This document shows positions 26,293 through 27,436 of a stretch of 64,000 bases of DNA, piece by piece. Location: the IMG/VR virus record IMGVR_UViG_3300033182_000709, positions 2,698-66,697 of that record. One strand, given 5' to 3'. The DNA is from a virus. How positions within the stretch are numbered: position 1 is the first letter of the stretch; the number at the start of each line of letters is the position of its first letter. The position numbers were made by a program, and so were the translations under genes. The notes below the pieces were generated by a model that had not been told where the DNA came from, made no database searches, and saw only the letters and a program-made list of their open reading frames with translations.

Positions 26293-26363
26293 GGCACTAT
26301 AGTTAAATGGTATAACTATTGATTTGTAATCAATGATTTTCAGTTCGATTCTGAATGGTGCCT
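26293..26363 (+). tRNA. tRNA-Thr(TGT)
   Basis: Canonical cloverleaf, TT-TGT-AA loop, TTCGATT T-loop. Confidence 0.9.
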
Positions 26364-26368
26364 CTTAC

Positions 26369-26442
26369 GGTTGCGTAGCTCAGTGGATCAGAGCAAGCGG
26401 TTTCTACCCGCTAGGTCGGGGGTTCAAATCCCTCCGCAACTA
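26369..26442 (+). tRNA. tRNA-Arg(TCT)
   Basis: Canonical cloverleaf, TT-TCT-AC loop. Confidence 0.9.
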
Positions 26443-26444
26443 CT

Positions 26445-26520
26445 TCCCTCTATGGGAATAAACATGTAGATGTTATTATTGAAATTATTCTGGACGGGGC
26501 TTCGATGCCCCCACCTCCAC
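26445..26520 (+). ncRNA. ssrA: two-piece tmRNA, acceptor piece
   Basis: GACGGGGCTTCGATGCCCC-CACCTCC-A 3' tRNA-like end; ACATG and GTTATTAT pair with the downstream coding piece; 5' boundary approximate. Confidence 0.75.
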
Positions 26521-26587
26521 TTTTTTTCGACCATCTCCACTATTTTTGGTATATAATAAGATATACTATTAAATAAAGGGGGTTGGA

Positions 26588-27145
26588 ATGTCAAAGATAA
26601 CTTTAACATGTGATACTTGTAACAAAGAATTTGAAAAAGAGAGGAACGAATATAACAGAAGAATAAGGTTGGGTAAGAATAAGTTTTACTGTGGGTTGTC
26701 TTGTGCTGGTAAAAGTCCTGACAATACCAAACACATTAATGATGTTAGGTCTAATTTTCCAGTTTGGAAACTTTCCAATCCAAAAAAGCATGACCAATAC
26801 AGTATATTTCGTCCAACCTTAAAAGCTATCAGACAAAGAGTCAAAGATAAACCAAAAGATTTTGACCTTACGGCTGAATATCTCAAAGAAATTTGGGATG
26901 AGCAAGACGGTAAATGTCCTTTCACTGGTTTTGACCTTGAGTTAAGAACATACTCTTCAAGACGCAACTTTAGAGATAAAACACTTCATATCAAGAGTGC
27001 AAGTCTTGACAGAATAGACAACACAAAAGGGTATGTTCAAGGTAATGTTAGATGGGTTTCTGTTATGTTTAATTTTGCTCGCAATACTTTTTCAGATGAA
27101 GATGTTGTTGAGTTTGCACAGGCCATTGTAGAAAATCGGGGGTGA
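26588..27145 (+). CDS. Zn-finger plus His-Me (HNH-like) putative homing endonuclease
   Basis: CDTC...YCGLSC N-terminus; CPFTG...SLDRIDNTKGYVQGNVRWV..FN C-terminus. Confidence 0.75.
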   Translation: MSKITLTCDTCNKEFEKERNEYNRRIRLGKNKFYCGLSCAGKSPDNTKHINDVRSNFPVWKLSNPKKHDQYSIFRPTLKAIRQRVKDKPKDFDLTAEYLKEIWDEQDGKCPFTGFDLELRTYSSRRNFRDKTLHIKSASLDRIDNTKGYVQGNVRWVSVMFNFARNTFSDEDVVEFAQAIVENRG

Positions 27146-27300
27146 ATTGGTTTCGACAGGTAATAAGATATAATAACTGCATGTGGTAGTTGGTCCAAGG
27201 CTACCTTAAAATGGACTAAACTTTATTTGCAGAGGAAACTCTTGCACTTGCAGCGTAAGCTGTCTGGGGCGGTCTGAGCCTTATTACCCAATCAGACCAG
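27138..27300 (+). ncRNA. ssrA: two-piece tmRNA, coding piece (tag AEETLALAA)
   Basis: GGGGGTGAATTGGTTTCGAC 5' end; pseudoknot GGTAG/CTACC with GTCCA/TGGAC; tag frame 27229-27258 ending TAA; 3' boundary approximate. Confidence 0.8.
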
Positions 27301-27341
27301 TTTTTATGCCCAACCGTTTTCTGTAAAAAAACGGGGATTAT

Positions 27342-27413
27342 TCCGAAGTAGCTCAATGGTAGAGCGGGTGGCTGTTAACCACTAGGTTACTGGTTCAAGT
27401 CCAGTCTTCGGAG
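27342..27413 (+). tRNA. tRNA-Asn(GTT)
   Basis: Canonical cloverleaf, CT-GTT-AA loop. Confidence 0.92.
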
Positions 27414-27436
27414 CTTTACTTTTATAGGAGTTTATT

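Follow-up and report, generated by a model that had tools for sequence, protein, structure and literature searches.

A permuted tmRNA gene of a marine phage with a predicted PacI-like endonuclease gene in its intervening segment

The window analysed here is a stretch of 64,000 nucleotides (nt) of viral DNA, positions 2,698 to 66,697 of the IMG/VR record IMGVR_UViG_3300033182_000709, an 81-kb virus contig that is ~53% complete and belongs to a marine phage. Its transfer RNA (tRNA) cluster, with tRNA-Ile, tRNA-Thr and tRNA-Arg upstream and tRNA-Asn downstream (ARAGORN, Rfam), houses a transfer-messenger RNA (tmRNA) gene in circularly permuted form: the piece with the tRNA-like 3' end comes first, the piece with the tag reading frame comes second, and a predicted endonuclease gene fills the segment between them. 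The features of the locus are the following, those of the tmRNA and its intervening segment before those of the flanks.

26445 to 26519 (5' limit approximate), + strand: tmRNA acceptor piece, placed by sequence, Rfam, ARAGORN and cofolding
within 26462 to 26492, + strand: strands of helix P2 in the acceptor piece
26462 to 26466, + strand: ACATG, pairing with CATGT at 27180 to 27184
26472 to 26479, + strand: GTTATTAT, pairing with ATAATAAC at 27170 to 27177
26496 to 26511, + strand: T-arm (GGGGC at 26496 to 26500, loop TTCGAT, GCCCC at 26507 to 26511)
26512 to 26518, + strand: acceptor 3' strand CACCTCC, with the discriminator A at 26519
26520 to 27137, + strand: intervening segment of 618 nt, of which ~613 nt are inserted cassette
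26531 to 26540, + strand: second copy of an acceptor 3' strand, CCATCTCCAC, lacking a T-arm, at the left edge of the cassette
26552 to 26557, + strand: TATAAT, in a block conserved in contigs L030-33 (sequence comparison)
26576 to 26583, + strand: likely Shine-Dalgarno sequence AAAGGGGG
26588 to 27145, + strand: predicted endonuclease gene of 185 amino acids, with an N-terminal Cys4 zinc finger and a PacI-like HNH (His-Me finger) domain
27143 to 27145, + strand: stop codon TGA of the endonuclease gene, inside the tmRNA 5' acceptor strand
27138 to 27300 (3' limit approximate), + strand: tmRNA coding piece, placed by sequence, Rfam, ARAGORN and cofolding
27138 to 27144, + strand: acceptor 5' strand GGGGGTG, followed by GGTTTCGAC
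27157 to 27184, + strand: strands of P2 in the coding piece
27185 to 27217, + strand: pseudoknot 1 (PK1), GGTAG/CTACC and GGTCCA/TGGACT
27229 to 27258, + strand: tag frame GCA GAG GAA ACT CTT GCA CTT GCA GCG TAA, opening with the alanine resume codon and encoding AEETLALAA and a stop
27271 to 27298, + strand: hairpin after the tag
26369 to 26443, + strand: tRNA-Arg(TCT) (ARAGORN; Rfam tRNA, 68.1 bits)
27314 to 27335, + strand: A/T-rich hairpin CCGTTTT...AAAACGG after the coding piece (sequence comparison)
27342 to 27414, + strand: tRNA-Asn(GTT), the next gene of the cluster (ARAGORN, Rfam)

The two pieces share a 7-bp acceptor stem, GGGGGTG/CACCTCC, which includes the G3-U70 pair and is topped by the discriminator A; the T-loop has 6 nt, one short of the 7-nt consensus. 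The 3' end of tRNA-Arg lies immediately before the acceptor piece, thus the 5' limit of this piece is probably set by 3' processing of the adjoining tRNA. The 618-nt intervening segment would be removed as the two pieces mature.

Several lines of evidence identify the tmRNA. ARAGORN called a permuted tmRNA with the tag AEETLALAA on four of four constructs in which the spacer was cut to 20-60 nt, and the Rfam model RF04321 (tmRNA_permuted) aligned along its whole length with 26462-27258, scoring 34.5 bits (E 4.9e-5); sister alleles free of the insert reach 89-96 bits on the same model (gathering score 47). Unconstrained RNAcofold of 26445-26519 with 27138-27300 returned the 7-bp acceptor stem, the T hairpin and 25 further pairs between the pieces, with an energy of -82.0 kcal/mol; 200 shuffled versions of the acceptor piece gave -68.4 +/- 3.6, and none reached so low a value (z = -3.8). 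The P2a, P2b and P2c pairings are present both in the covariance model alignment and in the cofold. Helix covariation was seen across 12 related sequences, in each of which the best local duplex was sought separately and compared with shuffles; column-based pair counts on MAFFT alignments put several helices out of register and were not used. Among these 12 sequences the T-stem takes six different complementary versions (e.g. GGGGC/GCCCC, GAGGC/GCCTC, TCGGA/TCCGA and GGCGG/CCGCC), stem 2 of PK1 six different complementary duplexes of 6-9 bp, and the hairpin after the tag seven different versions, and in L112 and L119 the acceptor stem shows a compensatory switch from GGGGGTG/CACCTCC to GGGGATG/CATCTCC. 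The five insert-bearing alleles vary among themselves in the tmRNA helices and still pair, while their endonuclease genes stand at a synonymous divergence (dS) of 0.3-1.25; the tmRNA has therefore been under selection after the insertion. An identical 24-nt sequence of T-arm and acceptor strand occurs in 24 viral contigs, some of them with ARAGORN-accepted tmRNAs. An RNA-library contig from a relative covers 27138-27262, to which we give no weight as proof of processing, and blastn of the locus against 50,697 GenBank phage records returned no match.

We thus regard the locus as confirmed to be a real two-piece tmRNA gene of working type; its RNA processing, alanylation and SmpB binding are predictions from the sequence. 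The original prediction of a circularly permuted tmRNA in a phage is borne out by gene order, trimmed constructs, RF04321, cofolding and covariation, and every element that it named (the T-arm, the 7-bp acceptor stem with G3-U70, the pairs between the pieces, PK1 and the tag) lies where it had been placed. It had suggested ARAGORN and permuted Rfam models as a check, and here the result is divided: the trimmed constructs and the sister alleles are recognised, but the native sequence is missed or falls below threshold. Its statement that permuted tmRNA genes are known from Alphaproteobacteria, some Betaproteobacteria and some Cyanobacteria is too narrow, as many are known in phages (PMC9004378). 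Indeed, 53 two-piece forms were reported among 133 distinct phage tmRNAs, mostly marine (PMC9004378), and the tmRNA database holds 79 phage entries (PMC11915505). The tmRNA itself is therefore of an already known kind.

What sets the locus apart is the content of its spacer. Relatives were gathered from IMG/VR, which was scanned for short patterns as well as for matches to the spacer protein, and many further permuted tmRNAs in viral contigs also turned up. The window's clade of phage two-piece tmRNAs consists of L030-33 and L110-L120 and has tags of the type A[DE]E[ST]LALAA; L030-33 have the layout of the window, and L110-L113 and L116-L120 are without the insert. Empty alleles (L111-113 and L118-120) read CACCTCCA-CTTAC-GGGGGTG, that is, with a 5-nt spacer; the filled alleles (the window and L030-33) have CACCTCCACTT in common on the left and C-GGGGGTG on the right. 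This comparison means that ~613 nt were added. In the empty alleles the 5 nt (CTTAC) from the discriminator to G1 are very short for a permuted tmRNA, and no CCA is encoded. One filled allele, L031 (1350-2200), has the look of a recombinant. In its acceptor piece the 5' half agrees letter for letter with the L112 type; the T-arm, like the coding piece, belongs with the L032/L033 type, which leaves P2a mismatched (GCATG vs CAATC). Such a mosaic is what would be expected from co-conversion around a homing site.

Copies of the acceptor strand without a T-arm (..CTCCA, often followed by a T-run) stand 10-25 nt past the real tmRNA 3' end in the window, in L030-33 (~1442-1452), and in L034, L046, L047, L052 and L067 (from the tmRNA 3' end to 1500). 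These copies often match the acceptor variant of a different allele; that of the window, CCATCTCCAC, fits the GGGGATG/CATCTCC variant. Several of the copies stand behind standard tmRNAs. They may be left over from earlier host genes, or may contribute to the folding of the precursor. Within the cassette, the TATAAT block and AAAGGGGG are likely the expression signals of the endonuclease gene. A promoter and terminator scan found sites no commoner than in shuffles and none at the expected places; the TATAAT block was not called in the consensus promoter scan because it has no -35 element, and since the scan did no better than shuffles, the block counts only as a conserved motif. The hairpin at 27314-27335, which was not called by the terminator scan, is a possible weak terminator; it also occurs in L033, there with a T-run behind it.

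The open reading frame (ORF) in the cassette matches the PHROGs families 'endonuclease', 'endonuclease VII' and 'HNH endonuclease' (best E 2.5e-27); Pfam gave no family match for it, and across the endonuclease family just weak zinc-finger matches. At the N-terminus, the zinc finger is similar to those of the MYM/FCS type and to ribosomal protein L24e. In 49 homologues the N-terminal cysteines C8, C11, C35 and C39 are invariant together with L99, W103, Q106 and C110, as are the motif residues S139, D141, R142, G148, Y149 and N153. The AlphaFold model of the 185-residue protein has a predicted local distance difference test score (pLDDT) of 83.6. In Foldseek this model matched PacI best (3ldy_A, E 1.4e-3, probability 1.0); Gme-HNH, Cas9-HNH, Cap5 and T4 endonuclease VII came next. 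The profile of the family matches PacI at 19% identity with the shared motif D-R..G-Y..N..N (D141-R142..G148-Y149..N153..N162). In PacI, which belongs to the mostly viral His-Me finger group 20, a tyrosine replaces the catalytic histidine (PMC5714182). Among five close copies of the gene, the ratio of nonsynonymous to synonymous divergence (dN/dS) is 0.11-0.28, which points to purifying selection. The phage has a second PacI-like gene of 167 amino acids outside the window (L138:1297-1800; G000:C1, ~79861-80364), with the motif SLDRID..GY..N and a helix-turn-helix (HTH)-like N-terminus in place of the zinc finger; it sits between ORFs of 246 and 353 amino acids, with no tRNA or tmRNA near. Swapping of DNA-binding modules is usual for free-standing homing nucleases.

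The family to which the endonuclease belongs is found beside tmRNA genes well outside the window. Of 80 viral loci with a homologue, 41 touch a tmRNA gene: in 10 the gene is inside the spacer of a permuted tmRNA (L030-33, L060, L061-63, L079 and L088), in 20 it lies 36-105 nt past the 3' end of a standard tmRNA, in nine directly before a permuted tmRNA, and in two it adjoins a tmRNA of opposite orientation. Three doubtful loci were kept out of the firm tallies: L106, where a tmRNA call was obtained from deletion constructs alone, L072, whose T-arm is poor, and L095, with its odd 33-residue tag. The in-spacer loci cover at least four tmRNA types, with the tags ADESLALAA, ANDDNYGMEVALVA, ANDNVSYEDFALAA and ANDNVSYGDYALAA. 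Standard tmRNAs whose tag, at 24 residues, is unusually long (AKTAKYKGHISARVSLVEMTASVA and variants) occur in L043, L045, L048, L053-L058, L064, L065, L096 and L104, and in each case the endonuclease gene comes after the tmRNA. In L092 and L095, after position 2055, a standard tmRNA stands on the opposite strand right after the endonuclease gene; the 33-residue tag that ARAGORN gives for L095 is perhaps a miscall.

A search of 185,579 prokaryotes, with one genome per species, found 16 bacterial loci, and in 14 of them the homologue is downstream of the chromosomal ssrA gene of filamentous cyanobacteria (Scytonema, Calothrix, Rivularia, Oscillatoria and Stigonema), at 68-125 nt in seven and within ~0.7 kb in the other seven. 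In the cyanobacterial loci (L121-L135) ssrA has the standard form, with tags beginning ANNIV. The match begins at residue 34-67 in seven loci, ~0.7 kb after ssrA, where the N-terminal part may differ or be interrupted. A maximum-likelihood tree requires no fewer than four changes of the in-spacer state, or three if the doubtful L106 is set aside, and it places the clade of the window's endonuclease as sister to genes behind standard tmRNAs with support of 96/89. On this tree, the family entered spacers at least three times.

A further regularity concerns the end of the endonuclease gene. In nine of nine in-spacer loci the ORF has no stop codon before the first nucleotide of the tmRNA coding piece; the stop follows it by 5 nt in the clade of the window, as the TGA of GGGGGTGA, and by 10-52 nt in the others. 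The 5' end of the coding piece is produced by tRNA-processing enzymes (PMC11915505). As the stop is located past the RNase P site, each maturation would part the ORF from its stop codon. This geometry suggests that nuclease expression may be limited by tmRNA maturation.

Taken together, we propose, with a probability of roughly 0.7, that the locus is a two-piece tmRNA gene in a phage tRNA cluster and that a free-standing, homing-type endonuclease gene has settled in its intervening segment. On the RNA side, the tRNA cluster would be transcribed as a precursor; RNase P would cut at G27138, and tRNA 3'-end enzymes and a CCA-adding enzyme would finish the acceptor piece at A26519. The two RNAs would then pair via P1 and P2, be charged with alanine and act with host SmpB, so that stalled proteins would be tagged with AEETLALAA; RNase P, the 3'-end enzymes, the CCA-adding enzyme, alanyl-tRNA synthetase and SmpB would all be supplied by the host. 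On the DNA side, the nuclease would cut cassette-free tmRNA genes at or close to the conserved point where the 3' acceptor strand meets the 5' one, and repair would copy the cassette into the cut allele. The target would be the conserved tRNA-like end, and in permuted genes a site just past the 3' end is discarded spacer; as this segment is lost when the RNA matures, the insertion would cost the tmRNA little and the gene would have a safe harbour. The matured transcript would leave an endonuclease mRNA without a stop codon, thus limiting nuclease output. Two traits of homing are seen at the level of the alleles: the gene is present or absent at one fixed site among homologous alleles, and invasion is repeated, with a nuclease tree that disagrees with the genomic context.

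A number of observations weigh against this proposal. As to the RNA, ARAGORN called no tmRNA on the native, untrimmed sequence, and the window, at 34.5 bits, stays below the 47 bits that RF04321 sets as its gathering score, its spacer being treated in the alignment as a single very long insertion. CCA is not encoded at the tmRNA acceptor end; the phage tRNAs at 26369-26443 and 27342-27414 likewise have no encoded CCA, so all the tRNA-like ends of this phage need a CCA-adding enzyme. No gene for SmpB or for a CCA-adding enzyme turned up in the 81-kb record; as the record amounts to roughly half of the genome, their absence from it is uninformative. As to the nuclease, no histidine is conserved among the 49 homologues and the canonical catalytic histidine of HNH enzymes is absent, so that a nuclease activity would rest on the PacI analogy at a weak sequence score (E 0.016). 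As to homing, many of the 80 viral loci are near-copies of one phage from different samples, and the tallies overstate the number of independent cases. About half of the viral homologues have no tmRNA within 1.5 kb by the detectors applied and nine lie upstream of a tmRNA; the target is therefore not one single site. The pseudo-3'-end copy at the left edge of the cassette is unaccounted for by simple homing. Finally, all the processing and homing steps set out above are read from sequence.

It is possible to go one step further, although we hold this much more tentatively: the PacI-like family may be specialised on phage and cyanobacterial tmRNA genes, with the spacer of two-piece genes as a safe harbour, and maturation would yield a non-stop nuclease mRNA that is rescued by the same tmRNA, which would also tag the product for degradation. 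If this is true, the dosage of a selfish gene would be set by the maturation and function of its host RNA.

The origin of the permutation was also considered. According to the original prediction, it may have arisen independently in a phage of a probable planctomycete host, separate from the alphaproteobacterial, betaproteobacterial and cyanobacterial two-piece lineages. The tags of the clade (AEETLALAA and ADESLALAA) are indeed unlike the ANDN-type tags of the other phage two-piece tmRNAs found, its 5-nt spacer is unusually short and its CCA not encoded, and a crude alignment score places a phage tmRNA of standard form (L014, tag GETQLALAA) closest to the clade among the sequences outside it. 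Planctomycetota, moreover, have almost only standard tmRNAs (a supplement row reads 2512 genomes, 1914 and 1, its column headings not shown). However, the sister alleles just attain the gathering score of the alphaproteobacterial Rfam model RF01849 (51-59 bits, where 50 are required; aligned over model positions 40-278 of 355, with the window absent from the matches), and in pairwise alignment of the 5' 125 nt the scores with standard, alpha-type and beta-type tmRNAs are too close to tell the lineage. Alpha-type two-piece tmRNAs are also known to move among marine phages of different hosts (PMC9004378). A planctomycete host is not shown: the sole hint in the window is one domain match, the DUF1501 protein at 59423-60676, which Pfam confirmed (E 7.6e-64). 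We therefore consider a separate permutation event in a planctomycete phage lineage unlikely, and this claim of the original prediction is not borne out; the window sits in a clade of phage two-piece tmRNAs, and the crude comparison separates no lineage.

Could the protein be a dedicated partner of the tmRNA rather than a selfish element, for example as a factor that processes the precursor or serves trans-translation, or as a nuclease by which ribosomes are made to stall? The gene stands adjacent to tmRNA genes on the same strand in phages and in several filamentous cyanobacterial genera, it is under purifying selection, its zinc finger is like that of the MYM/FCS type and of L24e, and no SmpB was found in the phage record. 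These points would fit a partner, but near-identical tmRNA alleles exist with and without the gene, its position varies between after, inside and before the tmRNA, and half of the homologues are not beside a tmRNA at all. The paralogue with an HTH-type N-terminus sits among other genes of the same phage, and the nearest solved structure is a site-specific DNA endonuclease. A dedicated partner is thus improbable.

It is still less probable that the insertion killed the tmRNA and left its halves as relics, with the endonuclease alone functional. A 618-nt spacer with its own promoter-like element far exceeds usual spacers, the native gene fails in ARAGORN and at the Rfam gathering score, the T-loop is one base short and CCA is missing, all of which would fit this reading. 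Yet the five filled alleles, at an ORF dS of up to ~1.2, keep their T-stems, PK1, P2 and an open tag frame via compensatory changes; the 24-nt T-arm and acceptor sequence is shared with ARAGORN-accepted tmRNAs, and the cofold recovers the full architecture.

The possibility that misassembly of a standard gene produced the permuted order, which had been raised with the original prediction, is effectively refuted. The contig is a single metagenomic assembly and no listed public contig spans the whole stretch, but four other contigs from three other metagenomes (L030-33) carry the same gene order and both junctions, L110-L120 have the order without the insert, tRNA genes stand on both flanks, and a 521-nt seawater contig from another study spans 26300-26659, from the tRNAs across the left junction (26519) into the ORF. 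This check used public contigs, with RNA runs represented by small shares only; none of the contigs listed crosses the right junction with at least 31 letters on each side, and the gap at 27002-27118 is uninformative.

Compared with the two-piece tmRNAs of marine phages and Alphaproteobacteria (RF04321/RF01849; OM43 phage Melnitz and pelagimyophages, PMC9004378), the locus is alike in that the 3' half comes first, in the G3-U70 stem formed in trans, the P2 between the pieces, PK1, a tag ending in LAA and a phage from a marine sample. It differs in its 618-nt spacer with a full endonuclease gene, where sister spacers have 5 nt, in the lack of an encoded CCA, and in tags of the type A[ED]E[TS]LALAA rather than the ANDN type. 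Among the contents of intervening sequences, the tmRNA database paper draws attention to a repeat element, found in its longest gene (1152 bp), and to one tRNA-Ala (PMC11915505). The homing endonuclease genes that it reports are all in group I introns of the T-loop and are of the LAGLIDADG type (PMC11915505). Both there and here, a homing-type nuclease gene occupies a tmRNA segment that is removed, or would be removed, at the RNA level, so that the tmRNA survives. At our locus, however, there is no intron (Rfam searched up to E 10 returned no group I intron), the T-loop is uninterrupted, the order is permuted and the site is the permutation spacer; removal would be tRNA-end processing without religation, and the nuclease is PacI-like HNH. 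With PacI itself (PDB 3ldy; PMC5714182), the best structural match, the protein shares the motif described above and a tyrosine for the catalytic histidine; unlike PacI, it has an N-terminally fused Cys4 zinc finger, and its gene behaves as a mobile insertion beside tmRNA genes and not as a restriction enzyme.

Further parallels are found among elements that inhabit stable-RNA or split genes. Free-standing homing endonucleases are known in phage tRNA regions, namely T4 SegB and the T5 F-Tfl HNH nickases. As in those cases, a free-standing nuclease gene, presumably preferentially inherited, is located among the stable-RNA genes of a large phage; in contrast to them, where the gene lies between genes, the present one is inside an excised spacer and reads into the mature RNA, and its family is tied to tmRNA genes across phages and cyanobacteria.

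Two other systems appear comparable: split-intein genes whose halves have a homing endonuclease gene between them, termed 'fractured genes' (PMC2677866), and the insertion sequences with homing endonucleases in rRNA genes of candidate phyla radiation (CPR) bacteria (PMC11270868). In these, as here, a nuclease gene fills the gap of a gene whose product is rejoined or works in pieces; the host gene (protein or rRNA vs tmRNA), the chemistry of reassembly and the nuclease families appear to differ. A literature search that covered few subscription journals returned no endonuclease gene in the spacer of a two-piece tmRNA and no nuclease or HNH family tied to ssrA. What is new here is the nuclease-filled spacer together with a nuclease family linked to tmRNA genes.

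The spacer of two-piece tmRNAs is usually seen as short and meaningless; here it is a landing pad for a mobile nuclease gene, which provides homing nucleases with a second route, besides the T-loop group I introns, to live inside tmRNA genes. It also accounts for why standard annotation tools miss such genes, with ARAGORN failing and Rfam remaining below threshold. The matched filled and empty alleles are a natural experiment on the processing of a stable RNA with 0.6 kb of cargo, and the enzyme may be a new rare-cutting nuclease for a highly conserved sequence, and thus a possible reagent. For the biology of the family, the position of its stop codon past the RNase P site in all nine in-spacer cases suggests a coupling of RNA maturation, non-stop mRNA and trans-translation.

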